Shown here: in pieces, positions 1-23,590 of the stretch
How positions within the stretch are numbered: position 1 is the stretch's first letter
Layout: each line of letters starts with the position of its first letter
Assembly: GCF_000092105.1 (NCBI RefSeq)
Contig: NC_014148.1
Coordinates: 4,530,001-4,562,000 of the forward strand
Origin: Planctopirus limnophila DSM 3776
GTDB taxonomy: Bacteria; Planctomycetota; Planctomycetia; Planctomycetales; Planctomycetaceae
Direction: 5' to 3'
DNA length: 32,000 nucleotides
Position numbers and translations under genes: made by a program
Notes under the pieces: generated by a model
Told to the model about the DNA's origin: nothing
Seen by the model: only the letters and a program-made list of their open reading frames with translations
Databases searched by the model: none

Positions 1-1
1 G

Positions 2-187
2 CATTCGGTCGCTTGGCCATCAGAGAAAACCATTCCAGTGGCGTCAGATCATGCCGCCGATTATTCTGCGCAAGGATTTATTGATATGTTCTCACGAACA
101 GCGTTCTTAAAGCATACCGACTGGCCCGATCTCCGGGATGATCGAACTGCAGAAAGCCATCGCGACTTTGTCCAGTCCACGGTCTGA
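2..187 (+). CDS. 3' end of an unidentified CDS entering from upstream of the window (61 codons)
   Basis: Frame 2 is open from base 2 to the TGA at 185-187 (...DWPDLRDDRTAESHRDFVQSTV*). It is absent from the ORF track because it has no start in the window. No family recognised. Confidence 0.3.
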   Translation, partial: HSVAWPSEKTIPVASDHAADYSAQGFIDMFSRTAFLKHTDWPDLRDDRTAESHRDFVQSTV

Positions 188-222
188 AGCTGTGGCTGCT
201 TTCGGATTCAAGGATTTTCTCC

Positions 223-1527
223 ATGCGACGTCCATTGATTGATCTGCGGTTTTTTGAGGCGGGACTGTTTTTGAGCCGCGGGCTGCTGGCTTTGTGGGTG
301 CTGGCGATTGGGCTATTGTCCACGAGTCAGGCGCAGCACAACTGGCCCCAGTTTCTCGGGCCGGAAGGAAATGCTTATGCTCAGAGTACGAAACTTCCCG
401 TCACGATCGGCGAGGAGAACATCTTCTGGCAAACCGCCATTCATGGAAAAGGCTGGTCTTCGCCCGTCATCTGGAACAATGACCTGTGGATGACGACGGC
501 GACTCCCGATGGACACAAGCTCTCGGTGATTTGCGTTGATAAGCCCTCGGGAAAGATTGTGCTCGACAAGCTGTTGTTCGAAGTCGAGAAGCCCAGCGAA
601 ATCCACGATTTCAACAGCTACGCCTCACCCACGCCCGTCTTGGAAGACGGGAAGGCGTGGATCAGTTTTGGCAGCTATGGCACGGCCTGCCTGGCGGGCC
701 GCTCGGGTGAAGTGCTCTGGCAAAGGCGTGATCTCCCTTGCGAGCATTTTCGTGGCCCGGGAAGTTCGCCCATCCTTTTCGAGAATTTGTTGATTCTGCA
801 CATGGACGGCTTTGATTTTCAGTATGTGGTAGCTCTCGACAAGGAAACAGGCCAGACCGTCTGGAAAGTCGATCGTCAGGTCGAATATGGCTCTGAAAAT
901 GGCGACTTCAAGAAAGCCTTCTGTACTCCCACCATCATTCAGGTCAACGGGCAACCACAACTGATCAGCCCCACATCCAAGGCGAGTCTGGCCCTGGATC
1001 CGCGGACGGGGAAAGAGCTCTGGCGGATTCGCTTTAAGGAATTCTCAGCCACTGTCAGGCCGGTCTACGGGAATGGTCTGGTCTTTATCAATACCGGCTT
1101 CGGGAAGGCAGCCCTGCATGCTGTCGATCCGACAGGAACAGGCGATGTGACCGAAACCCACGTTCGCTGGAGTGCTGCCAAAGGCATCCCTTCCAAGCCC
1201 ACGCATGTGCTGGTCGACGATCTGCTCTTTATGGTGCACGATGGTGGTGCCGCCACCTGCTTCGAAGCCACCACTGGCAAACAGCTCTGGCAGGAGCGGC
1301 TCGGTGGCAACTATACCGCCACACCACTCTATGCGGATGGAAAACTCTGGTTCTTCAGCCAGGAGGGAAAGATCAAGGTGCTCAAGGCGTCTCGTGAGTT
1401 TGAAGAACTGGGAGAAAGCCAGCTGGGCGACGGCTTTATGGCATCGCCCGCAGTCAGTGATGACCTGATGTATCTCCGCTCGCGAACGAACCTCTATCAG
1501 GTCGGCAGGAAACCCTCGGCCAATTGA
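223..1527 (+). CDS. PQQ-like (BamB-type) beta-propeller repeat protein, secreted or anchored
   Basis: 434-aa ORF. Hydrophobic N-terminus (LLALWVLAIGLLSTSQAQ) followed by the NWPQFLGPEGN motif and repeated W/G-containing blade-like segments, typical of planctomycete PQQ-like propellers. Confidence 0.8.
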   Translation: MRRPLIDLRFFEAGLFLSRGLLALWVLAIGLLSTSQAQHNWPQFLGPEGNAYAQSTKLPVTIGEENIFWQTAIHGKGWSSPVIWNNDLWMTTATPDGHKLSVICVDKPSGKIVLDKLLFEVEKPSEIHDFNSYASPTPVLEDGKAWISFGSYGTACLAGRSGEVLWQRRDLPCEHFRGPGSSPILFENLLILHMDGFDFQYVVALDKETGQTVWKVDRQVEYGSENGDFKKAFCTPTIIQVNGQPQLISPTSKASLALDPRTGKELWRIRFKEFSATVRPVYGNGLVFINTGFGKAALHAVDPTGTGDVTETHVRWSAAKGIPSKPTHVLVDDLLFMVHDGGAATCFEATTGKQLWQERLGGNYTATPLYADGKLWFFSQEGKIKVLKASREFEELGESQLGDGFMASPAVSDDLMYLRSRTNLYQVGRKPSAN

Positions 1528-1621
1528 GAGAGTGCCTTGCAGTGAATCCGTTGAAGAGAGTCAGGGCGAAGGTGAAAAGGGTTGAAGGTCGGAAGGGGAA
1601 GAAGGCCAGAGAGCAGGGCTG

Positions 1622-1755
1622 CCGCAGGAGCGCTGATTGACTCACAGTGGCGAGAGGCCAAGAGTGTACTGCGATGAAGCCGGTTGTGGATTGCTCGCCC
1701 AATACGTTCGAGTTCCCCTCATCCCGGCCTTCTCCCGTCGGAACGGGAGAAGGAG
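1622..1755 (+). repeat. 134-nt interspersed element, family A, copy 1
   Basis: Same length as 17763-17896, with identical ends: 5' ccgcaggagcgctgattgac and 3' aatacgttcgagttcccctcatcccggccttctcccgtcggaacgggagaaggag. An 11-bp stem hairpin lies at 1728-1753 (ccttctcccgt/acgggagaagg). Confidence 0.85.
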
Positions 1756-1806
1756 TAAAAGCCTTTGCTTGCAGCAGAGCTGCTTGCATCTCTGAAGTGG
1801 TGACTT

Positions 1807-3036
1807 TTACGGAATCATGTAGATAAAGCCCACCACGGCTCCGGCCTGCACAGCGGCGGCGTGAGCATTCCAGGGGATTTGATAGGTGAGCCGGGGTGCC
1901 ACTTCGCCAGGTCGGTAATAGCCGAGAGCATACTGCTTGGATGCTGGGGGATGAATGACCGCCTGATAAGGGAAGCCAATCAGCTGAACACCGAATTTCC
2001 CGAGTGACACGGCGGATTGAATACCAGGTGGATAGTGGTGCCCATATCGCTCCAGTGCCACATCTTCAAAGTAAAGTGGCTGGTGATAAAGGTTGGGTGG
2101 TTCCCACAAGGCCAGGAGGTCAGGATAGTTCCGTGGAGGCGCAGGGCTATTATCGATATGCAGACCCACTTTATTCTGCTGCTCAAGGGCATATCGACGA
2201 ATATCTTCATCCGCCACGGGATCACCGAAGGGAACAATCTGATAAATACGGCGAATCCCGAGATTCGGCAGGGCTGGTGCCAGCCGTTCATCAGCAATGA
2301 TGGCCCGCTCCGACTCCTTTTGCAGCGGTGGAACGGGTGGCAAGTTGGCGGCTGATGGCGAAGTGGCTTGTGTTTCGACCTGTGCAGGAGCATTCACACC
2401 GTTAGAAGTATTTGCATTCACTTCAATTGGTGTCGGGCCCGACTGAACGGCATTTGGAACTGGTGCCTGAGAATTCTGGCTCACTGCAGCGACGATCTGC
2501 TCCGCTGAAGGAGCTGGCAAGATCCACTGATGATCACCCTGCACGAGTACCTCGGGTTGATCCAGAAATGGATAGGCCGGAGGAGTAGTGGCGGCTTGTG
2601 GAGGAGTGTTTGATTCAGGGAACGCCACGACAGCTTTGGAGTTTGCTGTGGGAGCCGCATCGATAATCGAGGCTGGCATGTCGGGCGCAGCCGATTTGCC
2701 TTCCTGGATTCGATCGACAGGGAGACGCTCTGGAGCAGTGCCGGAACCTGACGAACCGACGTTCGTAAAGGCTTGTGTCTCGCTGGAGATCACTGTCTGC
2801 CGGGACAATTTCTGCACGGCGTCCTCTTCGCGAACTTTGGTCCAGCGCTGTTCCGGAGAACGTTCGCGCAAGGTATCCAGCGGACTGCGGGAGGCGTCGC
2901 CGGCTGGTGCCTGAGTGATCAGCACACCTGCCAGTGCGACGGCCAGAGCCGGCTGATACCAGTTCTGCTTACGAGCCTTCGCGATGGGCGTGCTCAACGG
3001 TGTAATTCGGAGATTCTTCGACAATCGTAATGTCAT
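1807..3036 (-). CDS. Hypothetical secreted protein with a Pro/Ala/Gln-rich middle and a conserved-looking C-terminal module
   Basis: 409-aa ORF with ATG at 3036. Basic n-region plus hydrophobic [16 protein letters not shown]. The C-terminal [18 protein letters not shown]... segment I recognise only as a recurrent planctomycete hypothetical family. The 5' end overlaps the guaB 3' end by 68 nt. Confidence 0.65.
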
Positions 3037-4465
3037 GGGGATGGTTCTCCCTCACTGTGGCAGCCGAGACTTGAATGAACCGCGTGTTTGTCCGCAGATC
3101 ATCAATCGTGGGCACACCGCAGTATCCCATGCCGGCCCGCAGGCCACCGATCAACTGGTAAACCAGATTGTGGAGCGAGCCTTTATGAGCCACTCGCCCT
3201 TCAACGCCTTCGGGAACGAGCTTCCCTGCTCCACGCCCTGGACTGCTTTCGTCAACTTTCCCTTGCCGGTAGCGTTCGCTGCTCCCTTTGACCATGGCAC
3301 CCATCGAGCCCATGCCCCGGTAGCGTTTGTAGCTGCGGCCCTGGAAAAGAATGACTTCTCCGGGGCTTTCATCCACACCCGCCAGCAAACTTCCCAGCAT
3401 CACGCAATGACCACCAGCAGCCAAAGCCTTGGTGATATCACCGCTATACCTGATGCCACCATCGGCAATGATCGGAACATCAGTCCCGGCCACTGCCAAT
3501 GAGGCATTGTGTATCGCCGTTAACTGAGGAACACCCACACCGGCAATAATTCGCGTCGTGCAGATCGAGCCTGGGCCAATGCCCACCTTGATTGCATCCG
3601 CCCCCGCCATCAGGAGATCTCGGGCTCCTGCCGTTGTGGCAACATTCCCTGCTATCACATCGATCTCTGGCCAGCGTTTCTTCACCTCGCTAACGGTCTG
3701 AATCACGTTTTGGCTATGTCCGTGTGCGCTGTCGACACAAAGCACATCAACCCCCCTGTCGATAAGGGCCGCAGCACGCTCAAAGTCAAACACGCCGACG
3801 GCGGCACCGACGCGCAAACGTCCACGTCGATCTTTACTCGCTTTCGGGAAACGCAGGTTTTTATCGATATCCTTGATCGTGATCAGCCCCTTGAGCTGAA
3901 ACTCGTCATCCACCAGCAGCAGCTTCTCAACCTTGTTTTCGAGGAGAATCCGCTCGGCTTCTTCGAGAGTCGTATTCTCTTTCGCCGTCACGAGATTCTC
4001 TTTGGTCATCACTTCGGAAATCGGCGTATCTTTCGACGCGAGAAACCGCAGGTCGCGACGTGTCAGAATCCCTTTGAGCCGACCGTTTTGAGTGACCGGA
4101 ACACCACCAATGTTCCTTTGCTCCATGATTTCCCAGGCGGCCAGCGCTGTCGCCTCTGGCGGGAGAGTCACGGGATCGACAATGACGCCGTGTTCACTGC
4201 GTTTGACCCGCTCGACATGCAACGCCTGTTGTTCGATCGAGAGGTTTTTATGAATGATCCCCATGCCCCCTTCCTGCGCCATGGCAATGGCCATGTCGCT
4301 TTCCGTCACGGTATCCATGGGGCTGGAAACAATCGGCACATTCAGCCGGATATTGCGGGTGAGTCGAGAAGATGTTTCGACATCGGAAGGTACGAGTTCA
4401 CTATAGCCCGGTTCGAGCAGAACATCGTCGAAGGTGATTCCCTGATAGGCAATTCGATCTTGCAT
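2969..4465 (-). CDS. guaB: Inosine-5'-monophosphate dehydrogenase
   Basis: 498 aa. Contains SSPMDTVTE, a tandem CBS insert, the catalytic loop [11 protein letters not shown], and [11 protein letters not shown]. Full-length colinear resemblance to bacterial IMPDH. Confidence 0.97.
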
Positions 4466-4522
4466 GGTAATGAGATTCTCCGACAGAGCCGGCTGCTGCC
4501 AGAATCTGGCAGGAGGCAGTTT

Positions 4523-5467
4523 TCAGTTCGCAGTTTTCAGTGAATCAAGACCCGCGGCGGGTGTTGATGGATTAGTTTCGTGGTATAGCAGGTTGGCCAA
4601 GGCCACATGAATCTCAGTCGGTAGTTCTTCAGCCCGTGCCTGTGGAGTAATCCCTGCCTGCTGGAGCAATTCATCGATGCGGGGTTTAGCCACCTGGGAA
4701 TAGGTGCTGCACAGGACACCACGCAACAGCTTGCGCCGGTGCATGAAGATCGCTCGCAGATAGTTATGGAAGAATTCCGGATCGGCAATGCGGTCTCGCC
4801 TGGCTGGTGCCGGTGTGACGAGCACTACGGCAGAATCAATCTTGGGCCTGGGCCAGAAGACATCCGGAGGGAGCTTGCGCAGAATTTCGATATCGCATTG
4901 CGACTGTAACCAGATCGACAGCCCGCTGTAATCGCTGCTCCCTGGCGTTGCCTGCATCCGCACGGCCATTTCCCACTGGACAGTCACCACCATCCGCGAC
5001 CAGGGCCACTCGCTTCCCACAATCATGGAAATGACCGGAGTGGCAATGTTGTAAGGCAAATTGGCCACCAGCTTTAAGGTCGAGCCGGGCCGTCTGGCCA
5101 GGGCGGTGTTGACACTTTCGACCAGCAAAGGATGGAGTTGATTTTTGTTCTTGAGAGCGTCGGTATTCACCCACTGCACATTCGACAAGCCGGCATGCTG
5201 TTTTGTCGCAATCGCATGCATGTTCGGGTCGTACTCGATCGAGACGACTTCGCCCGCTTCTGCAGCGAGGAAAATCGTGAGACCGCCTGTCCCGGTCCCC
5301 ACTTCGAGAACCACATCATCTTTGGATAACTGGGCCTCGCGGGCCACCAGTTCCACCAGATTGATATCAATCAGAAAATTCTGACCCAGATCACCGCGCG
5401 GATTAATCCGGAGCTTATGAAACAGCTCCGTCAGATGTGTGCGCGTTTGGCGGTGGTCTTCGCTCAT
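4523..5467 (-). CDS. rsmA: 16S rRNA (adenine1518/1519-N6)-dimethyltransferase
   Basis: GQNFLID motif, SAM-binding VLEVGTGTGGLT, and NLPYNIATP. ATG at 5467 (MSEDH...) is preferred over the TTG at 5518 used by the ORF track. Confidence 0.92.
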   Translation of the reverse strand: MSEDHRQTRTHLTELFHKLRINPRGDLGQNFLIDINLVELVAREAQLSKDDVVLEVGTGTGGLTIFLAAEAGEVVSIEYDPNMHAIATKQHAGLSNVQWVNTDALKNKNQLHPLLVESVNTALARRPGSTLKLVANLPYNIATPVISMIVGSEWPWSRMVVTVQWEMAVRMQATPGSSDYSGLSIWLQSQCDIEILRKLPPDVFWPRPKIDSAVVLVTPAPARRDRIADPEFFHNYLRAIFMHRRKLLRGVLCSTYSQVAKPRIDELLQQAGITPQARAEELPTEIHVALANLLYHETNPSTPAAGLDSLKTAN

Positions 5468-5978
5468 AGGTTCTGGGGCAAGTACTCTGGCCACTCGCAA
5501 AGAGCGGCGAAGGATCAATCAGTCAAGAATACCCGCAGGAATCCTTTTTGGCGAATCGACCACTGGAAAAATTTTCTGTGAATCCCTTCACCCGGCGATC
5601 TGTTGTGGAAATCAACGGGAAAAACCTTCCCCATTACGGATTCCAATAAACGTCCGCGCGGCGGGTGGCTGGGGTTGAGTCTTCGAACCCCCAGCGATCT
5701 TTGGCACTATCTGGGGGTTCCCGAAGACGTGTGGCCCCAGCCATCCCCATACCAAGGAGCCCAGTTGATTATTGGATTCCGTACCCAAGATTTCCTCGAA
5801 CTGCCAATCAGCGGGTAGCGATGGGTGGAAATCGATTGTTAGGATGAAGGACGATTCCTTGATATGGCATTCATCGAGCTGGCACTTTTCGTCAATTTCG
5901 GACGGCAGACATCCCGAGCAGGCACTATCTTTTCAAACTCTCGACAACCGGGTATTGACAACTGGAAAGGGTATTTTC

Positions 5979-7244
5979 ATGAGCAGACAGCAGCTTTCCC
6001 GACGCACCTTCCTGGCGGCTTCCGCCGTATTTGCGGCTCCACTGATTATTCCCGCGCGGGCGTTTGGTGCCAATGAGCGAATTGTTACTGCACACATCGG
6101 GATTGGCGGTCAGGGCTCGGGAAATCTCAAGGCGTTTATGGGTCAGGGTGTCGCCCCGGCCGCGATTGTCGATGTCGATTCCAAGCGGTTGGCCAGCACG
6201 ATCAAGATGGTCAGCGAGAAGGGCTTCAAGGTCGACGGTTACGACGATTACCGCAAGGTGCTCGAACGCAAAGATATCGATGCCATTGTCGTTTCCACTC
6301 CGGATCACTGGCACGCCTTGCCGACCGTGCATGGTTGCCAGGCGGGCAAAGATGTTTATTGCGAAAAGCCACTCACGCTGACGATTCCCGAAGGCCGGGC
6401 CATGGTGGAAGCGGCTCGTGCTCATAACCGCATTGTGCAGACTGGTTCACAGCAACGATCCGATGCCAAGTTCCGTAAGGCGTGTGAGCTGGTGCGTAAT
6501 GGAAAAATTGGCAAGGTGAACAAGGTTCTGGTCGGTCTGGCCAAGTCGAACTTTGGTGGCCCACCTGTTGCTGATTCTGAGCCGCCAGCCGAACTCAACT
6601 ACGACATGTGGCTCGGGCCGGCACCACAACGGCCATATAACCAGAAGCGAGTCCATTACAACTTCCGCTTCTTCTGGGATTACTCGGGCGGGCAGATGAC
6701 CAACTGGGGTGCCCATCACATTGATATTGCTCACTGGGCACTCGGTTTTGACCATACCGGGCCAGTCAGCACAGAAGGGACAGCCGAGTTCCATCCCGAG
6801 AAGTGGTTTGAAGTCTCGACGGCTTGTCGCATCACTCACAAGTATGGCAACGGCGTCGAAATCGTTGTGGGACAGGAACAGAAAGACATTCCTGGCGGCA
6901 CGACATTCATTGGTGAGAAAGGGACGATTTTCGTCAATCGCGGCGTGCTGCGCGGAACTCCAGCCGAGTTGATCGAGCAGGAACTTTCGAGCGGTGACGA
7001 ATCGCTCTATGTTTCGAGCAATCATCACAAGAATTTTCTCGACTGCATCAAGTCGCGCGAACTGCCGATCTGCGATGTCGAGATTGGCCACCGGACTGCC
7101 AGTGCCTGCCACCTGGGGAACATTGCGATTCGTTTGGGCCGCAAGATTGAATGGGATCCCGTCAACGAAAAGATTGTGGGCAATGATCCTGAAGCCATCG
7201 CTCTGGTGAATCGTCCGTATCGGGCACCGTGGTCGCTGAAGTAA
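5979..7244 (+). CDS. Gfo/Idh/MocA-family oxidoreductase with twin-arginine signal
   Basis: Internal ATG at 5979 gives MSRQQLSRRTFLAASAVFAAPLIIPARA (a Tat-type signal). Followed by a Rossmann-type GIGGQG and the VYCEKPLT motif typical of the family. The upstream 69 codons of ORF 5772 look non-coding. Confidence 0.9.
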   Translation: MSRQQLSRRTFLAASAVFAAPLIIPARAFGANERIVTAHIGIGGQGSGNLKAFMGQGVAPAAIVDVDSKRLASTIKMVSEKGFKVDGYDDYRKVLERKDIDAIVVSTPDHWHALPTVHGCQAGKDVYCEKPLTLTIPEGRAMVEAARAHNRIVQTGSQQRSDAKFRKACELVRNGKIGKVNKVLVGLAKSNFGGPPVADSEPPAELNYDMWLGPAPQRPYNQKRVHYNFRFFWDYSGGQMTNWGAHHIDIAHWALGFDHTGPVSTEGTAEFHPEKWFEVSTACRITHKYGNGVEIVVGQEQKDIPGGTTFIGEKGTIFVNRGVLRGTPAELIEQELSSGDESLYVSSNHHKNFLDCIKSRELPICDVEIGHRTASACHLGNIAIRLGRKIEWDPVNEKIVGNDPEAIALVNRPYRAPWSLK

Positions 7245-7253
7245 TTGGATGGA

Positions 7254-7353
7254 TTGGTGTTTGGTGTTGGGTCTTTGGTATTTGTCTGTTGGAAAGATGC
7301 TGTATAAATCGCTGAAATAGCTGGCTCGACAAACACCCAACACCAAACACCCA
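7254..7353. repeat. 100-bp element with 23-bp imperfect terminal inverted repeats (G/T-rich arm versus C/A-rich arm)
   Basis: 7256-7272 ggtgtttggtgttgggt is the exact reverse complement of 7335-7351. Extending to 7254-7276 / 7331-7353 gives 21 of 23 pairs. The right arm also contains a tandem 14-mer, aaacacccaacacc x2, at 7331-7358. Confidence 0.7.
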
Positions 7354-7375
7354 ACACCTCCCTTACAAATGAAAA

Positions 7376-7403
7376 CAGCCCCCGGTCTTGCGATCGGGGG
7401 CTG
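7376..7403. terminator. Bidirectional intrinsic-terminator-like hairpin between convergent genes
   Basis: Perfect 9-bp GC-rich stem cagcccccg (7376-7384) / cgggggctg (7395-7403) with a 10-nt loop. T-containing tail on the + strand (ctgttcgtt) and T-rich tail on the - strand (tttcatttg). It sits between the stop at 7244 (+) and the stop at 7468 (-). Confidence 0.65.
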
Positions 7404-7467
7404 CTGTTCGTTGTAACACCGTCAGAAGTCTATTGCCGTTATCGATTCACTGTTCAGCCGACACAAA

Positions 7468-8787
7468 CTAGTTGTTGAAGCTGAAGAGCTGGCGATATTC
7501 GCTGTTCTTGCGAGCAGCAGGTGGAACTGGAGCTGGGATAGCTTCGGGAGCCATTGGGGCAGGGGCTGGTGCCATTGCTGGAGCAGTGCCTGGGCAGGTG
7601 CCTGGTGCACAGCTTGTCGAGCAGACAGCATCGCAGTTACCTTCAACAACTTCGTAGCCGCAGAGTTCCAGAGCCTGCTTGGCCTGACGAACGACTGGCT
7701 TGTGGCAATCACCCAAAGCGTGTGTCAGAGCAGCGACAACTTCTGGCGAGCAGCAGCAGTGCTTGCGGATCTGGTCACCGATTTCATCGGCAGCCTTCAG
7801 ACGAACTCGTTCATCGGTATCGTTGAGGGCGTAGATGAAGGCGCACATGATTTCTGGGCTGCAGACGCAGTTGTACTTGTCACCCAGCTTGTGGATGGCA
7901 TGACGACGATCCTTGGCGTAGCAAGCTGTCTGCGAGGTGTAGATCAGCTTGGCAACTTCGCAAGGGTCAACGTCACAGCAGGTTGTGGTTGCACAGCTGG
8001 TTGGAGCTGGAGCAGCACAGCCTGGAGCACAGGCAGCGGGAGCAGCACAGCCTGCAGGAGCAGGTGCACATGTTGAACCGCACGATGGCTTGGCGCACTT
8101 AGCCTTCAAGCGAGCGAACAGACCACAGTGCTTGGCAGCTGGAGTGCAGCTGGGAGCACAGGTGGCTGGAGCGCAGGTGCTTGGGGCTGGAGCGGCACAA
8201 GCTGGAGCACAAGCAGCAGGGGCTGGAGCACAGGCTGCAGGAGCAGCACAGGCTGGAGCACAAGCGGCTGGAGCTGGAGCACAGGCTGCAGGAGCGGCAC
8301 AGGCTGGTGCACAAGCAGCTGGGGCTGGAGCACAGGCTGCAGGAGCAGCACAGGCTGGAGCACAAGCGGCTGGAGCTGGAGCACAGGCTGCAGGAGCAGC
8401 ACAAGCTGGAGCACAAGCAGCTGGAGCTGGAGCACAGGCTGCAGGAGCAGCACAGGCTGGAGCACAAGCGGCTGGGGCTGGAGCACAGGCTGCAGGAGCA
8501 GCACAAGCAGGAGCGGCGGCAGCAGGTGCACAGCAAGTCGCTGGAGCACATGTATCGCAGCAGGGGGGCTTAATGTCGGAGCACTTGCGCTGATAAACGT
8601 AAACGTTTGGCGAGCAAGGCTTGACAATAACGGGCTTACAGCAGGCAGGCTGACTGGTCGAAGCACAACCACAAGCCTTTTCGGTACCGCAGCCATGGCC
8701 GCGGAAAAGGCCGGCTTCAGCCAGCGAGGCCATGCTCATCGCAGCAAGCATGGTTCCACAAAACTTGATCCATCGCATGAGTCTCAA
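7468..8787 (-). CDS. Secreted Cys/Ala/Pro-rich tandem-repeat protein with C-terminal HEAT-like repeats
   Basis: 439 aa with signal peptide MRLMRWIKFCGTMLAAMSMASLAEA. About six identical 17-aa repeats (APACAAPAACAPAPAAC). The C-terminal half carries HEAT-like units (RRHAIHKLGD, DERVRLKAADEIGD, KPVVRQAKQALE) studded with CC/CCC. Confidence 0.8.
   Translation of the reverse strand: MRLMRWIKFCGTMLAAMSMASLAEAGLFRGHGCGTEKACGCASTSQPACCKPVIVKPCSPNVYVYQRKCSDIKPPCCDTCAPATCCAPAAAAPACAAPAACAPAPAACAPACAAPAACAPAPAACAPACAAPAACAPAPAACAPACAAPAACAPAPAACAPACAAPAACAPAPAACAPACAAPAACAPAPAACAPACAAPAPSTCAPATCAPSCTPAAKHCGLFARLKAKCAKPSCGSTCAPAPAGCAAPAACAPGCAAPAPTSCATTTCCDVDPCEVAKLIYTSQTACYAKDRRHAIHKLGDKYNCVCSPEIMCAFIYALNDTDERVRLKAADEIGDQIRKHCCCSPEVVAALTHALGDCHKPVVRQAKQALELCGYEVVEGNCDAVCSTSCAPGTCPGTAPAMAPAPAPMAPEAIPAPVPPAARKNSEYRQLFSFNN
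8190..8510 (-). repeat. In-frame 51-bp tandem repeat array (about 6.3 copies) inside the Cys-rich CDS
   Basis: Unit starts on the + strand are at 8225, 8276, 8327, 8378, 8429 and 8480, exactly 51 nt apart. Unit: ggagcacaggctgcaggagcagcacaggctggagcacaagcggctggagct. Copies differ at a few positions only. Confidence 0.9.
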
Positions 8788-9563
8788 TCTCCTTCCCTAG
8801 GGATTCGAAAACAGGGTCTTCCCAACCCGCGAGACAAGTGTCGGTCAGCAGTGGATTGGCAGGCGGTGCTCACCTAAGGCGCCGAGCTGTCAGCCCCGCC
8901 CCGCGACCCGTGTCGCGTCACACCAAACTGAATCCTTCACATGTCCGGCTGACCAGGCCCCGTACCACTTTTCGATCGTTGCGGGCGATCTCGAGTGGCA
9001 AGGTCGCTGTCTTCTTCCGAGCAGTTCCTCGCATCACCACCCGGTGATACGGACTGCTCGGGCGAAGTTGCCTATTCCATCGGCCCCACTGGAACGATCG
9101 CTTGAGTTTCCCAAACCGCTAATTGAGCAAGGATTTGTGTCTTCCGGCCATGTAAATATGCCGGTTGTTCCGGTTCCGTAAAACAAGGGTGACTTTGCGG
9201 GCAATTTTCGTCGTCAAAGCTTACCAACACTCCATTGACCTTAACGATTAACGAGACCGGGGCTCTTGTGTGTGACTGTTGCTGGTGTAGCGAATGCACC
9301 CACAGTGCCGCTTGTAACAGGGGTAAGAAGCGTGCTCGCCGCCCTTCGTCCAGAGTTCCTGTTGTACCTGCTAAGCAGGGTGGAATGACCTTGCCAATCA
9401 AGTGGTTGAAACTCCGGCAGATCCTGCCAAAGCGAATGGAAGTGGCCATGAGCAGTACAGATTGCAGTACCGTTGGCCTCGAATCATTTGAAGACTTTTT
9501 GCTCCGGTGGATCCTGTGGCATCGATCTGACCTCTGCCTCACTTAATATGAATGCGGCTGTTT

Positions 9564-9698
9564 CTCCTTCTCCCGTTCTGACGGGAGAAGGCCGGGATGA
9601 GAGCGAGCTCGCACCTATGGGGGAAACAATTCACCACCGGCCTCGTCGCAGGATGCTTTTCATCTCCGGCGACTGACAGACAATAGGCGCCCCTGCGG
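9564..9698 (-). repeat. Family A interspersed element, copy 2 (inverted orientation, more diverged)
   Basis: The reverse complement begins ccgcaggggcgcc... and ends ...ctcatcccggccttctcccgtcagaacgggagaaggag. Length 135 nt, with the same terminal hairpin as copies 1 and 3. Confidence 0.75.
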
Positions 9699-9730
9699 AA
9701 GTCTTGGCGATTAATCCATGCCCAGCGGCA

Positions 9731-9786
9731 AGACCCTCACCCGGCACTTCGTGCCACCCTCTCCCACGCAGACGCGGGCGAGGGTT
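9731..9786 (+). repeat. Family B double-hairpin palindromic element, copy 1
   Basis: agaccctcacccggcacttcgtgccaccctctcccacgcagacgcgggcgagggtt, with hairpins ggcac/gtgcc and ccctc.ccc/gggcgaggg. Near-identical to 13023-13078. Confidence 0.8.
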
Positions 9787-9913
9787 TTTGAGGGGAACAC
9801 GCCCTTTCGCACTGTTTTCATGTTTGTGGCTCCCGGGGCGTGCCACCCGATACGTGGTGCCAACCTTTGTCGTGCGGACGACTTAAAGAATAGAGAAAGC
9901 CGGGAAGATTATG

Positions 9914-12943: not shown

Positions 12944-13022
12944 CTCGAAAGGTGAGTCAATGCCAGTTCAGCGGGTCGCCACTGGTTCTGAAACTCTTGT
13001 GATCAATTCACATCGATGGGAA

Positions 13023-13078
13023 AGACCCTCATCCGGCACTCCGTGCCACCCTCGCCCACGAAGACGCGGGCGAGGGTT
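13023..13078 (+). repeat. Family B double-hairpin element, copy 2
   Basis: agaccctcatccggcactccgtgccaccctcgcccacgaagacgcgggcgagggtt. A 9-bp stem ccctcgccc/gggcgaggg. Located in the intergenic region between two minus-strand genes. Confidence 0.8.
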
Positions 13079-17710: not shown

Positions 17711-17734
17711 TCCGTGCCGGGTGAGGGTCTTGCC
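17711..17734 (-). repeat. Partial family B element (5' part only), 28 nt upstream of family A copy 3
   Basis: tccgtgccgggtgagggtcttgcc is the reverse complement of the ggcaagaccctcacccggcac portion seen at 9728-9746. Confidence 0.6.
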
Positions 17735-17762
17735 AAGCGATGTGCAACAGTCACCACAGCTT

Positions 17763-17896
17763 CCGCAGGAGCGCTGATTGACGATTGGTAGCCAGAGATG
17801 AAGAGCATGCTGCGTTTAGACCGCTAGTGGATAGTACACCGAATACGTTCGAGTTCCCCTCATCCCGGCCTTCTCCCGTCGGAACGGGAGAAGGAG
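17763..17896 (+). repeat. Family A interspersed element, copy 3
   Basis: 134 nt. The first 20 nt and the last 55 nt are identical to copy 1 (1622-1755); the central part is diverged. Confidence 0.85.
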
Positions 17897-18152
17897 CAAT
17901 ACAGTCTCCCGCATACCCATAGACTGGGTGGCTCAAACATCGCTTTGAAAGCCTGGATGACAACGGTCACTCGAAACACTCTGCAAAACGCAGTGGTGAA
18001 CCTGCATTTCCTCATGTCGGGTGCATGCAGTCCCGACGGAATGCACCAGGCTCGGTAACCCTTTCGTGCCGGGCCTTTAGTTCACGAATATCGACGCTGA
18101 GTTGTATCGAATAGTCAGCCGTCGAATTCCCGGCTTACCGTCTCACGCCGAC

Positions 18153-18677
18153 TTATCTTCTCACCCAGTGCAGACGGACGAGTGTCGCACCATCGCCCGT
18201 TTTGGGGATAAAGTTTTCGGGTCGGTTGTCATCCACTGCTGTTTTTCCGTACGGGGCCAGGCACAACTCCAGTTGCGAACCGTTCAGTCGGTAAATGCCC
18301 TGATAGACATGGTTATTCTGGGCATCGTACAAGTCGAACTGCATCGGCTCATCAAGCAAACGACCCGGCTTGACCCGCAGACCTAAAGTCGCAACGGGCA
18401 GAATCGAATCGGGCCTTTCAATCCGAACTTTGTTTCCATCAATCTTGAGCAGGTAATCTTTGTAAGGGAGGACGGTCGAACGCAGCACATCGGTCGTGGC
18501 CGAATCAACCTGCCATGTCCCCGAGATTCGCGTGAGATTCAAATCGGAAGCCTGCAGGCTCCGCGACCCCAGGATCATCGACCCGAGGACCATCGAGGCC
18601 ACAACCATGGCACCAATCCAGGAGCAGCACCAGGCGCGAAAATCCCCAGGCAAAGTTCGGCAAGCAGACGAAGGCAT
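18153..18677 (-). CDS. TIGR03067-type (planctomycete-specific domain) protein with N-terminal anchor
   Basis: 174 aa. Contains GTWQVDSA, GIYRLNGSQLELCLAPYGK and RPENF, matching my recollection of the TIGR03067 domain signature (GTW..., GIY.L.GD.L.LC, RP..F). Confidence 0.72.
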   Translation of the reverse strand: MPSSACRTLPGDFRAWCCSWIGAMVVASMVLGSMILGSRSLQASDLNLTRISGTWQVDSATTDVLRSTVLPYKDYLLKIDGNKVRIERPDSILPVATLGLRVKPGRLLDEPMQFDLYDAQNNHVYQGIYRLNGSQLELCLAPYGKTAVDDNRPENFIPKTGDGATLVRLHWVRR

Positions 18678-18877
18678 GGCAACATGGCTTTCAGAAAGCA
18701 GTCAAAGATGGGAGTAAGCGACCTGTCGACCATCACGGGGCAATCAACCAGCAAGACAAGATCATAAAGTCCCCGCCCGACCTGTGAACAGCCCCTCATG
18801 CTGATTCTGCACGAGAATCCGCAGGCCATCACCTACGATTCACTTGGGGATTCAGCGTACAATCGATGCATCAGTTC

Positions 18878-18982
18878 CACTCGCCCGACATTTCCGCCAG
18901 TCATCCCAGAAGAAAACTTGACATGACCGATTCTTTGAATCGATTCACCAATCGAGTCGAAAACTACCGTAAGTATCGACCC
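18878..18982 (+). repeat. Left copy of a perfect 105-bp direct repeat
   Basis: Base-for-base identical to 19779-19883 (offset 901). Contains 45 nt of leader plus the first 20 codons (MTDSLNRFTNRVENYRKYRP) of the methyltransferase. Confidence 0.95.
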
Positions 18983-19159
18983 TGCTTAAAGTCGGCGAAC
19001 GATGAATCGACGAGCTGCATGCAATGGATTTTTCCGAGCAAGAAATTTGCAGCTCACTCATGCGGCATAACTCAACACATCCCACTGAACCTGTTGACAT
19101 TGACTGCCAAAGTCCGCCTTGTATTCTCGTCGCAAGTTTTCGGAACAATCACACGTTAG
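18923..19159 (+). pseudogene. Chimeric remnant: 20 duplicated methyltransferase codons fused to 58 insert-derived codons
   Basis: ATG at 18923 reads MTDSLNRFTNRVENYRKYRP, then diverges exactly at the repeat boundary (18983) into CLKSANDESTS...GTITR*. Confidence 0.6.
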
Positions 19160-19178
19160 GTGAATACACCTTATTGAC

Positions 19179-19706
19179 ATGATCGCGGTACAGACAATCT
19201 CAACGTCGTGGACAAAATCGTCGCGTGGCGGTTCACTTGCCATGCTGAGAAATTGCGTACCCAAACGCCTTCCATTAAGTGTGCCAGATGACTTTAGAAA
19301 CGTTGTTTGGCACTCGGTTGCATACTCTGAATGCAACAGATTCGCTGTTCCGACAAGCGTACGCGTTACAGGACACTGCGAAGACAATCGTTTTGGATGC
19401 AAAAACGCAGAGGTTGAACGACACGATGATTATGCAATCCTGATTTACCGATATCAGACAGGGGCACCAGCACGCCAGTTCTTTGATCAATCAGGAACTC
19501 CCGTCGCACCCGAGCACTCGATTAAGATTCCATGGAACCGTTGGGCTTCAGTGGAATACAATGGCCGCTTTCCTTGTATCGACACAGGTAACTGGTGGTA
19601 CGAACGAGTGGTTATCAATGTTGCTTGTGGTGACTCCATTCCCTTCAACTGCTTCACGGGTTCTGAACCTATTGAAAACTATACTCAACTTGCAATTCTT
19701 CGTTGA
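19179..19706 (+). CDS. Orphan hypothetical protein carried by the 796-bp insertion
   Basis: Longest ORF in the insertion (175 aa; alternative start M22 at 19242). Trp/Cys-containing, no family recognised. AT-richer than its surroundings. Confidence 0.4.
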   Translation: MIAVQTISTSWTKSSRGGSLAMLRNCVPKRLPLSVPDDFRNVVWHSVAYSECNRFAVPTSVRVTGHCEDNRFGCKNAEVERHDDYAILIYRYQTGAPARQFFDQSGTPVAPEHSIKIPWNRWASVEYNGRFPCIDTGNWWYERVVINVACGDSIPFNCFTGSEPIENYTQLAILR

Positions 19707-19778
19707 GAACGAGACACACCCACAAACGATACGATGAATCCAGTTAGCAGAATCGTCGTTAATTTTAATGATATCGAT

Positions 19779-19883
19779 CACTCGCCCGACATTTCCGCCA
19801 GTCATCCCAGAAGAAAACTTGACATGACCGATTCTTTGAATCGATTCACCAATCGAGTCGAAAACTACCGTAAGTATCGACCC
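19779..19883 (+). repeat. Right copy of the perfect 105-bp direct repeat
   Basis: Identical to 18878-18982. Here it continues in frame into the intact methyltransferase. Confidence 0.95.
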
Positions 19884-20597
19884 GGGTATCCGCCAGAGGT
19901 GCTATCGGTCCTGCAGCGGGTGACGGGGTTCAACACGCAGTGGGTGGTGGCGGATCTCGGTGCGGGAACGGGGATTTCGTCGCAGCTTTTTCTGGAGCAT
20001 GGGAACGAGGTTTATGCTGTCGAACCGAATCGATCGATGCGTCAGGCCGCCAGGGAGCTTTTCGGTGACCAGGCGCGCCTCCACATCGTCGAAGGAACTG
20101 CGGAAGCGACCACTTTGCCAGATGCTGCCATCGATCTGGTCGTCGCTGCGCAGGCTTTTCACTGGTTCAACATACCGGCCACTCGCCTGGAGGTTCGAAG
20201 AATTCTCAAACCGCAAGGCTGGGTGGCGCTCATTTGGAATCATCGACAAACGCAGGGCTCAAAGTTTCTCGAAGAGTACGAACAACTACTCTGTACCTAC
20301 GGCCGGGATTACGCCGCCATCCGGGATTCTCATCGGGACCAGCGGCGTCTCGAAGAGTTCTTTGGCAATGGACAAAGCGGCAGCAACGGCGGCTACCAAA
20401 CCTTCGAAGTCGCCCACGAAAAGTGGCTCACCTATGAAGATTTGCGAGGGCTGCTGATGTCGGCCTCGTATGTGCCCCTCGAAGCCCAGCCGGGACATGC
20501 CAATATGCTTCTTGACTTACGTTCCATTTTTGCCCGCCATGCCAAAGATGGCGAGGTGCTGATGAAGTACCAGACAGAACTCTTTGTGGGGCGATGA
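19824..20597 (+). CDS. Class I SAM-dependent methyltransferase
   Basis: ATG at 19824 (MTDSLNRF...), 257 aa. Motif I VADLGAGTGISS, AVEPN, and post-II AAQAFHWF. GC-rich like the core genome (39 of 60 GC in the spot check 20041-20100). Confidence 0.9.
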   Translation: MTDSLNRFTNRVENYRKYRPGYPPEVLSVLQRVTGFNTQWVVADLGAGTGISSQLFLEHGNEVYAVEPNRSMRQAARELFGDQARLHIVEGTAEATTLPDAAIDLVVAAQAFHWFNIPATRLEVRRILKPQGWVALIWNHRQTQGSKFLEEYEQLLCTYGRDYAAIRDSHRDQRRLEEFFGNGQSGSNGGYQTFEVAHEKWLTYEDLRGLLMSASYVPLEAQPGHANMLLDLRSIFARHAKDGEVLMKYQTELFVGR

Positions 20598-20650
20598 AAT
20601 AAGTTGTATGGGCAACTTGGGATGGCAAGGCCTTCTGTGACCAAAACAAC

Positions 20651-20672
20651 TCAAGACTGAATTGATATTGTG
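20651..20672 (+). repeat. Left copy of an imperfect direct repeat bounding the Abi module
   Basis: tcaagacTGaattgatattGtg here versus tcaagacaattgatattAtg at 22041-22060. An upstream ccaaaac.aac is also shared (20641-20650 versus 22018-22028). Confidence 0.45.
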
Positions 20673-20699
20673 CACAGAAAAGTATCTGGTAAAATTGAC

Positions 20700-20880
20700 A
20701 ATTGCGCACCAAAATCGCTTAGGTTAGAAGCGTAACCAGATAAGTCACTTTTCCAAACATCCGGTACATCTTCGACGTATACTCTAGACAACGCTTCAAG
20801 AAACCGATAATCTACTATACAGCATACCCTCCGGGCCTCTGCGGCAACGCATGCACACTTCGGAGGGTCTTTTCGTTTTC
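20700..20880 (+). ncRNA. Candidate structured non-coding RNA immediately upstream of the abi gene (boundaries approximate)
   Basis: No ORF here. Extended -10-like TGgTAAAAT at 20687-20695 and TTGACA at 20695-20700. Hairpin cgctt/aagcg at 20716-20732. A GNRA-capped helix tgcg-gcaa-cgca at 20840-20851 is nested inside an 8-bp helix accctccg/cggagggt (20826-20833 / 20861-20868), followed by cttttcgtttt. Confidence 0.4.
20826..20879 (+). terminator. Intrinsic-terminator-like hairpin plus T-tract, 48 nt upstream of the abi ATG
   Basis: Stem accctccg (20826-20833) / cggagggt (20861-20868) with a structured 27-nt loop, followed by the T-tract cttttcgtttt (20869-20879). Confidence 0.55.
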
Positions 20881-20927
20881 AGATGTAATTTTTTACATTG
20901 AATCCTCTCCATTCATCGGGCCTGACA

Positions 20928-21860
20928 ATGGAGTACGAGAAAAAATTTCTCACCTTCTCAGAGCAAGCCGATCTTCTGATTCAACGGGGTTTGAAAGCAG
21001 ATCGTGAAATTCTCATTCAGCATCTTCAGTCAGTAAGTTATTACCGAATAAGTGCTTACGTTCGACCATTTCGTCAGAAAAGCTCCCCGAACGACCCCAT
21101 CCGTGAAGACCTGGTACCCGGAACCACTTTCGATGACATCTGGTCGAGATATGTTTTCGACCGCAGGTTACGACTCCTAGTTATGGATGCGATCGAACGC
21201 ATTGAAGTCGATATTCGGACAAACCTGACATACCTGCATGCTGAAAAGCACGGCCCATTTGGCTACGCAGATGACACTGGTACGCTGCCTAATGTGCAAA
21301 GTGAGGAAGATCGCGAAAGGCTGCTCGAAGCACTGAAAGAGCCGTTGGCCAAAAGCAAGCCTCACGAAGATTTTGTCAAACACTTTAAGACAAAGTACGG
21401 CTCACATCATCGATCACTTCCCATTTGGGCCGCATGCGAAGTTATGACTTTTGGCCACCTGCTGACTTTCTACAGAGCTAGCCACCGGGACATCCAAAAG
21501 ATCGTCGCCAGGCGATACAAGCTTTCTGATATCGTTTTTGAGTCATGGCTTGTGACGCTGAATATGGTTCGCAATGTCTGTGCACACCACGGTCGTCTTT
21601 GGAATCGTGAATTGGGCGTCAAACCCATGGTTCCCAATAAGGATCATCAATGGAGACATGGAGTTGGTGCCAGTGCGCAACCACTACCGGACAATCGTGT
21701 GTTTATAGTACTCACCATGCTTAAGTTCTGCTTGAATCTGATCTCACCCGACAGTCAATGGGGGCAGGGTCTCAAGGGGTTGCTGAACGAGTTCCCCAAG
21801 ATTCCATTACGTTCCATGGGCTTCATCGACCAATGGGAATCTCACGTCCTTTGGAAATAG
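20928..21860 (+). CDS. Abi_2-family (AbiD/AbiF-like) HEPN abortive-infection protein
   Basis: MEYEKKFLTFSEQADLLIQRGL..., YYRISAY, YVFDRRLR, and LPIWAACEVMTFG. HEPN-type R-x4-6-H motifs RTNLTYLH (21216-21239) and RNVCAHHGRLWNR (21570 onward). The ORF track starts at the TTG at 20898; the ATG at 20928 fits family N-termini better. AT-rich (22 of 60 GC in 21001-21060). Confidence 0.88.
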   Translation: MEYEKKFLTFSEQADLLIQRGLKADREILIQHLQSVSYYRISAYVRPFRQKSSPNDPIREDLVPGTTFDDIWSRYVFDRRLRLLVMDAIERIEVDIRTNLTYLHAEKHGPFGYADDTGTLPNVQSEEDRERLLEALKEPLAKSKPHEDFVKHFKTKYGSHHRSLPIWAACEVMTFGHLLTFYRASHRDIQKIVARRYKLSDIVFESWLVTLNMVRNVCAHHGRLWNRELGVKPMVPNKDHQWRHGVGASAQPLPDNRVFIVLTMLKFCLNLISPDSQWGQGLKGLLNEFPKIPLRSMGFIDQWESHVLWK

Positions 21861-22040
21861 TACGTCGATGATCGACGATAACTGGATGATTTCTATCGAC
21901 TGCATTTTCAGAATCGATTGTGTGGCCGTTATCGTTCAATTCTATTTTCCAAGCGATTGGTAAACATCTTCCCACCGCTATGAATCTTTTGGCACAAGAA
22001 AAATCTCCATCTTCTTCCCAAAACGAACACCCACGTAAAG

Positions 22041-22060
22041 TCAAGACAATTGATATTATG
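22041..22060 (+). repeat. Right copy of the imperfect direct repeat bounding the Abi module
   Basis: tcaagacaattgatattatg. See 20651-20672. Confidence 0.45.
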
Positions 22061-23546: not shown

Positions 23547-23590
23547 AACCCTCGCCCACGTCTTCGTGGGAGAGGGCAGGGTGAGGGTCT
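23547..23590 (-). repeat. Family B element, copy 3 (inverted, lacks the ggcac/gtgcc hairpin)
   Basis: aaccctcgcccacgtcttcgtgggagagggcagggtgagggtct. The motif ctctggaaccctcgcc also occurs at 23508-23523, upstream of the copy at 23541-23556. Confidence 0.7.

Follow-up and report, generated by a model that had tools for sequence, protein, structure and literature searches.

In this study we describe a long direct repeat, and the one-gene segment that it encloses, in a 32,000-nucleotide (nt) stretch of the chromosome of Planctopirus limnophila DSM 3776 (NC_014148.1, positions 4,530,001 to 4,562,000; hereafter the window, whose coordinates are used throughout). The repeat finder returned one family with two copies of 105 nt on the + strand, at 18878..18982 and 19779..19883, that were 100% identical with a spacing of 901 bp. 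String comparison gave the same result and showed that identity stops abruptly at both ends (left, TCAGTTC versus TATCGAT; right, TGCTTAAA versus GGGTATCC), which upholds the original prediction of copies identical at every base with an offset of 901. The chance expectation for such repeat pairs in 32 kb is ~3e-55. The right copy runs on into an intact class I S-adenosylmethionine (SAM)-dependent methyltransferase of 257 amino acids (aa) (ADG69336.1; 19824..20597, + strand; Methyltransf_11 at 4.6e-18), whose ATG lies 45 nt into the repeat, bearing out a predicted composition of 45 nt of leader plus the first 20 codons. The left copy is contiguous with an upstream flank that is common to all Planctopirus relatives, and orthologues of the methyltransferase, also of 257 aa, occur in P. 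ephydatiae and P. hydrillae. The methyltransferase is the target gene and was left intact by the duplication. Each repeat copy also contains a perfect 12-bp palindrome, TGAATCGATTCA, at 18934–18945 and 19835–19846 (methyltransferase codons 5–8), which is invariant across all eight Planctopirus lineages and may simply reflect coding constraint.

The segment inserted between the copies spans 796 bp (18983..19778, + strand) and has a guanine plus cytosine (GC) content of 46.5%, below the 54.5% of the window and the 57.1% of the methyltransferase body; the sampled counts on which it had been called AT-richer (29 of 60 at 19081–19140 and 39 of 60 at 20041–20100) were exact. The one intact gene of the insert is Plim_3522 (ADG69335.1; 19179..19706, + strand), encoding a 175-aa protein of an uncharacterised family that is cassette-borne elsewhere. 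It is preceded by a 5' spacer of 196 bp (18983–19178) and followed by a 3' spacer of 72 bp (19707..19778, + strand) with AAC...GTT boxes that faintly resemble the ends of integron attC sites and with no attC hairpin. Upstream of the gene, a consensus scan located a candidate promoter-like site, TTGACT-16-TATTCT (19100..19127, + strand), the number of such sites being not above chance; a 46-nt block that holds it (19092–19137) is invariant between the window and L025, a second carrier of the insert, with the spacer around it 7.7% diverged. No terminator-like site was found between the left repeat and the methyltransferase, which makes co-transcription of Plim_3522 and the methyltransferase plausible.

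Translations agreed with the prediction that the left copy opens a chimeric open reading frame (ORF) and the right copy the intact methyltransferase. The chimeric ORF (18923..19159, + strand) has 78 codons, 20 from the methyltransferase and 58 from the insert, and has no Pfam match. It was rejected as a real gene, as it shows eight nonsynonymous and three synonymous codon changes relative to L025, in which its stop is also lost, and it is probably a by-product and no conserved protein. Domain scans covered most window ORFs of at least 150 aa, the remainder being mainly ORFs that overlap those. Neither in the insert nor in the scanned ORFs was a recombinase or transposase domain detected, in agreement with the earlier statement that no transposase or integrase is present. 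The repeat finder detected no terminal inverted repeats at the insert ends, and an Rfam search of 18400–20200 gave no match. A second copy of the insert was absent from the 32-kb window, and its interpretation as rearranged local sequence was rejected on that ground. The low GC content, the lack of a paralogue of its gene both in the window and among the hits, and the occurrence of homologues elsewhere as integron-type cassettes all make the insert look foreign.

Comparison with related genomes indicated that the insertion is an old presence/absence polymorphism within Planctopirus. Five lineages, namely L001, L002 (P. hydrillae), L052/L053/L058 (P. ephydatiae), L054 and L056/L057, possess the empty site that had been foreseen, a single 105-bp copy directly followed by GGGTATCCGCC with nothing inserted, relative to which the window carries 901 bp more (796 unique and 105 duplicated). 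The same arrangement as in the window, with the same junctions and the 901-bp offset, was present in L025 (a metagenome assembly, VFQR01007926.1), and L059 and L055 (Logan contigs) contained a variant form of the insertion with the same right junction. Three lineages thus carry the insertion and five do not, contrary to an ancient arrangement with diverged repeats in all relatives, which had been named as a possibility. An assembly artefact was rejected, since the P. limnophila DSM 3776 genome is finished (5.42 Mb), L025 has the same structure in an independent assembly and L059/L055 carry the variant.

Several comparisons bear on the age of the insertion. Between the window and L025 the insert was 92.6% identical (7.4% diverged) without gaps (5' spacer, 92.3%; ORF, 93.2%; 3' spacer, 88.9%), in comparison to 91.7% for the upstream flank, 91.7% for the methyltransferase and 93.4% for the downstream DUF5077/DUF3472 gene. 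Across the three carriers the 175-aa ORF differed by 6.4–8.7% and the 5' part of the methyltransferase by 4.9–8.5%. As the insert has diverged as much as its flanks, and the same junctions recur in three lineages, the insertion is old. The repeat copies behave differently: within a genome they showed 0 of 105 differences in the window and 2 of 105 in L025, versus 7 of 105 between the genomes, and an L025-specific G19A change was found in both L025 copies. Independent evolution of the copies predicts ~7–8 differences (Poisson P(0) 4e-4 to 9e-4; joint P <3e-5). Within-genome identity together with a shared lineage-specific change points to concerted evolution, where the copies appear to be held identical, or nearly so, by intrachromosomal gene conversion. 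The original prediction had taken perfect identity to imply a recent event. This is contradicted by an insert divergence of 7.4% between carriers, equal to that of the flanks, and by the copies in L059, which differ at 7 of 49 positions; the identity would reflect gene conversion and not youth. The factual statements of the original prediction thus all held, and its interpretation held in part.

The rearranged form in L059 (355–1105; Logan SRR12900989) has a 256-bp deletion between two occurrences of the 9-mer TTGACATGA, of which the window has just three, at 18918, 19174 and 19819. The left endpoint of the deletion is the 9-mer at the methyltransferase start in the left copy (18918..18926, + strand), and the right endpoint is that at the start of the 175-aa gene (19174..19182, + strand), such that the leader is joined directly to the ATG of the 175-aa gene, for which the gene caller gives an extended ORF of 217 aa. 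The deletion removes the chimeric ORF as well as the candidate internal promoter and cuts the left copy to 49 nt, the part that differs from the right copy at the seven positions given above. This divergence can be explained by a left copy that became too short for conversion once the deletion had occurred, and with 49 diverged nucleotides remaining the L059 form has probably lost the ability to excise.

The distribution of the insert among close relatives raised the question of gain or loss. For the flanking genes the quartet was ((window, L001), (L025, L002)), with the 0101 site pattern dominant at 29–43 sites per segment. With more taxa, the window was closest to insert-free L056 (0 differences in 200 bp around the site) and L025 was closest to insert-free L002 (2% immediately left and 0% immediately right), and presence and absence thus differ between close relatives in at least two independent cases. 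The inserts of the window and L025, at 7.4% divergence, nevertheless match the divergence of their hosts. That the nearest relatives of both the window and L025 lack the insert would be expected if recombination between the repeats deletes it precisely. Two alleles were also distinguished at repeat positions 23–28 (differing at positions 25–29), GTCATC versus GTAA[A/T]C. The two copies of the window, the two of L025, the left copy of L059 and insert-free L056 have the former; the right copy of L059 and the remaining insert-free genomes have the latter. A secondary deletion would keep the allele of the insertion haplotype, which accounts for GTCATC in L056, and this lineage seems to derive from a carrier by recent deletion. 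L025 lacks the allele of its sister L002, contrary to the prediction of an independent duplication of the local target. The simplest reading of these patterns is an ancestral insertion that was inherited vertically and then lost repeatedly by precise deletion.

Plim_3522 is intact in all three carriers, and the 21 synonymous against 14 nonsynonymous codon changes that separate it from the L025 copy suggest purifying selection on the 175-aa gene. The protein has 27 close homologues, nearly all of ~175 aa, and a profile search extended the family to 856 clusters (50% identity; 428 with E <=1e-10), consisting almost entirely of stand-alone proteins of 165–195 aa in which the motifs EYNGR and TGNWWYE are nearly invariant. 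None of 11 tested family members matched Pfam, and the 175-aa protein itself had no match in NCBIfam or PADLOC and no PHROG-like match. An AlphaFold (AF2) model was beta-rich and confident (predicted local distance difference test, pLDDT, 84; predicted template modelling score, pTM, 0.78), and a Foldseek search with it against PDB and BFVD returned no hit at E <=0.001, with template modelling (TM) scores of ~0.2. A PDB sequence profile search with the protein, and plasmid, phage and viral-contig searches with the gene, also gave no match. Nothing in these results suggests a recombinase. The locus in this way draws attention to a large protein family without annotation, whose predicted fold is confident yet unmatched.

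A connection to integron cassettes emerged from homologues elsewhere. In L026, a homologue of 73% identity (2618–3145) sits in a one-direction array of small ORFs, between which the spacers are repeats of ~85–95 nt with AAC at the start and GTT at the end. Eight such repeats could be aligned to a common hairpin, with compensatory changes in 10 of 14 pairs, and an attC covariance model was built from these eight attC-like sites. In L026 itself such sites stand on either side of the homologue, at 2511–2605 and 3160–3255. Applied elsewhere, the model placed sites outside its training set to the left and right of distant homologues in L038 (homologue 1164–1661; sites 1045–1138 and 1680–1774) and L039 (homologue 874–1371; sites 755–848 and 1390–1484), with E values of 1e-6 to 1e-13, and one site after the homologue in L037 with weaker support (E = 0.02). 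As attC-like sites flank the homologues in L026, L038 and L039, the family can be said to travel elsewhere as attC-flanked cassettes.

The L026 stretch has further features of its own. Its positions 1–8145 (ENA ERZ26165887 ctg132289_1x_c) contain the eight attC-like sites and ORFs that include Imm21 and 23S_rRNA_IVP proteins; the array is split by an IS21-type IstA/IstB pair, and no integron integrase was seen in the stretch. The ends of the locus repeat exactly (1–240 equals 7906–8145), and a 7,905-bp circle or a concatemer may underlie the 16-kb contig.

At the Planctopirus locus the covariance model detected no attC in the insert, including with filters off, and none anywhere in the 32-kb window, where the best score (8.9 bits) fell inside the methyltransferase. 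DNA folding z-scores of the 3' spacer were between -0.2 and -0.7 on both strands, no better than shuffles, and an attC in the insert was ruled out by folding and the purpose-built model taken together. Homologues in L027/L034 (behind a sulfatase gene), L035 and L048 are without attC and without long flanking repeats, and such repeats were rejected as a family-wide trait, as no other homologue locus has any. This comparison of loci suggests that the 105-bp repeat is a property of the Planctopirus locus and not of the 175-aa gene family, and that the 175-aa gene probably came from the integron-cassette pool, its attC no longer there.

The reading that we favour, at a probability of about 0.6, is that of a horizontally acquired segment, with one functional gene, that is old, homogenised and excisable and that derives from a single recombination event. 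In one ancestral event, a small DNA with the 175-aa gene and ~105–107 bp of homology to the methyltransferase 5' end would have recombined with the chromosome, either through a single Campbell-type crossover or through a one-ended homologous plus illegitimate join. Either route would duplicate the homology automatically, and the downstream gene would keep its own leader and start. Host homologous recombination would afterwards convert the repeats and occasionally delete the insert, regenerating the single-copy empty site, while in one lineage (L059) the 256-bp deletion between the 9-mers would have shortened the left copy and the copies would then have diverged. An insertion that is old, polymorphic, homogenised and excisable is the part of this account that we hold with good confidence, and the specific mechanism of its origin is put forward tentatively. 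Both L025 copies continue with GG past position 105, and for this reason the ancestral repeat was probably ~107 bp. The two allele classes in the L059 copies fit an origin from two different molecules, as a weak indication. Flanking duplications of 109–950 bp arose in Escherichia coli when circles that had short homology integrated by single crossover (PMC3240628). Of the mechanisms first proposed, a Campbell-type crossover is retained as the most plausible origin; an att-like site with a dedicated recombinase finds no backing, and cassette capture survives only in that the family is cassette-borne elsewhere, the local attC being absent.

A number of points weigh against the favoured account. 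Its origin step was reconstructed and not observed, the loci retrieved contained no donor arrangement, and nothing explains the presence of 105 bp of the target gene on the incoming DNA. The pattern among close relatives could also reflect gain by homologous recombination from unsampled donors instead of loss, given that only eight lineages were compared and the locus is mosaic, and the allele argument draws on one cluster of three substitutions. Lastly, part of the repeat identity could stem from purifying selection on the leader and the N-terminal codons, but such selection would not explain the lineage-specific changes that the copies share.

The main rival, which we consider unlikely, is a target duplication made de novo by a template switch, of the fork stalling and template switching (FoSTeS) or microhomology-mediated break-induced replication (MMBIR) type, or by fill-in of a ~105-nt staggered break. 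The 796 bp would then have been copied from an ectopic or foreign template, with copying resumed 105–107 nt upstream, and the later history would be the same as in the favoured reading. A repeat that is exactly local sequence would follow naturally from such a process, and no recombinase, terminal inverted repeats or attC was found; the GG after position 105 in the L025 copies is in keeping with it, and the ancestral left junction may carry 2 nt of microhomology. Against this, no donor template was identified and the right junction is without visible microhomology. The L059 pair, with GTCATC on the left and GTAAAC on the right, is also easier to obtain from different molecules, although later allele exchange could produce it as well.

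Far more doubtful is the proposal that the methyltransferase 5' end serves as an att-like site on which a recombinase whose gene lies elsewhere, such as an integron or tyrosine integrase, would act, and that the 901-bp unit enters and leaves site-specifically and was gained by several lineages independently. Identical junctions in three lineages that are not mutual nearest relatives, the mobility of the gene family as attC-flanked cassettes elsewhere and the perfect palindrome TGAATCGATTCA inside the repeat could be taken in its favour. These are outweighed in our view by an insert without attC even with filters off, by the lack of a recombinase in the window ORFs scanned and by the finding that no other 175-aa homologue is flanked by long direct repeats. 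L025 moreover has the insertion-linked C25 allele in both copies and not that of its sister L002, and insert divergence equals flank divergence. The core sites of integrons and typical tyrosine recombinases are far shorter, too, than an identity of 105 bp. We give just as little credence to a dedicated landing site, in which an in-trans or recombinase-independent mechanism would install and remove cassette-pool genes at the methyltransferase 5' end with a ~105-bp target duplication; if true, this would be a "duplication-coupled gene capture" that can be reversed and that differs from integration by integrons, transposons and phages. A recent insertion or assembly artefact, suggested by 0 differences in 105 bp in the window and by the very close relative L056 without the insert, is the least credible explanation, in view of a finished genome, the same structure in independent assemblies, an insert 7.4% diverged between carriers and diverged repeat copies in L059.

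Other variable features were observed around the insertion. Directly downstream of the methyltransferase, window positions 20598–22060 form a second, independent presence/absence segment of ~1.45 kb and 46% GC, which carries an Abi_2/AbiD abortive-infection gene (20898–21860; Pfam 1.2e-53; PADLOC AbiD 3.7e-68) and whose boundaries are marked by an imperfect 12-bp direct repeat, ATTGATATT[G/A]TG, at 20661 and 22049, the sole two occurrences in the window. The window and L002 have this segment; L001, L025, L052, L054 and L056 lack it. This pattern is in conflict with the distribution of the 796-bp insert, and the locus can therefore be regarded as a small variable hotspot. Upstream, an 85-bp stretch (18575–18659) inside a minus-strand gene with a TIGR03067 domain (18153–18677) differs by 24–26% between L002 and both the window and L025, while the window and L025 differ from each other and from L056 and L001 by 2–5%, in comparison to 4–11% for neighbouring blocks. 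On this sequence evidence the stretch, which falls in the N-terminal part of that gene, appears to be a patch that was replaced locally or is hypervariable. Intergenic repeats of ~140–230 bp that form one family, 75–93% alike and on both strands, were also found at 1619–1758, 9561–9789, 13019–13078, 17714–17899 and 23547–23576, with several tandem-like copies in L001 (3425–3649) and L002 (3028–3723). This family looks like repetitive extragenic palindromic (REP) elements or miniature inverted-repeat transposable elements (MITE) in Planctopirus.

Comparison with known systems separates the locus from several classes of mobile DNA. DNA transposons and insertion sequences differ from it in that the insert has no transposase and no terminal inverted repeats at its ends, and in that the duplication is 105 bp versus 2–14 bp. 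Diversity-generating retroelements differ as well, since no reverse transcriptase was found in the window ORFs scanned, the repeats are identical where those of a retroelement differ at adenines, and the repeat lies at the 5' end of a gene and not at the 3' end. Integrative elements that reside in gene ends carry a replacement end, as is known for tRNA 3' ends and for SXT in the prfC 5' end; they encode an integrase and use short core sites of ~17–60 bp. The Planctopirus insertion resembles them in the direct repeats of target sequence that flank it, in a single-copy empty site and in a target that stays functional after insertion into its 5' end, but it is only 0.8 kb in length, has a repeat of 105 bp, and no integrase was found in the insert or in the ORFs scanned.

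Concerted evolution of dispersed repeats by gene conversion is familiar from rRNA operons and tuf duplicates. As in these, the copies described here are more alike within than between genomes and lineage-specific substitutions occur in both of them. The repeat differs in being only 105 bp, with its copies 796 bp apart, and homogenisation stops at 49 nt in L059. Gene conversion can in this manner make an old structure look brand new, which calls for caution in dating by repeat identity.

Integron cassettes and arrays of the CALIN type (attC clusters that have no integron-integrase; PMC4889954) share with this system the single-gene units between attC-like hairpins seen for the homologues in L026, L038 and L039, and the local insert is itself cassette-sized with one promoter-proximal ORF. 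The differences are considerable: there is no attC in the 32-kb window, no cluster of two or more attC sites and no attI, no integrase domain (intI) was found in the ORFs scanned, the local 5' spacer measures 196 bp versus an 18-nt cassette leader in L026, and a 105-bp duplication of the start of a host gene is no product of integron recombination. Cassettes with degenerate attC sites may be a step toward genome stabilisation according to the IntegronFinder paper (PMC4889954), and the present case suggests that a gene of the integron-cassette pool can become fixed in a chromosome with no attC.

The closest counterpart is single-crossover insertion-duplication (PMC3240628), which is related to homology-facilitated illegitimate recombination. 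In both, a direct duplication of a piece of the target (105 bp here, ancestrally ~107 bp), of a length that suffices for RecA-type recombination, flanks the insert and is single copy in empty sites, no dedicated recombinase takes part, the event is reversible via the repeats and the downstream gene remains intact when the homology covers its 5' end. The Planctopirus case departs from it in being a natural one-gene insert of 796 bp that was kept over species-level divergence, with repeats long homogenised and not freshly made. A 105-bp flanking duplication can in this way make gene acquisition both harmless, as the downstream start is kept, and reversible, by scarless loss. The processes involved are all known and no new mechanism is needed; the instance is new and instructive, and would not surprise a specialist.

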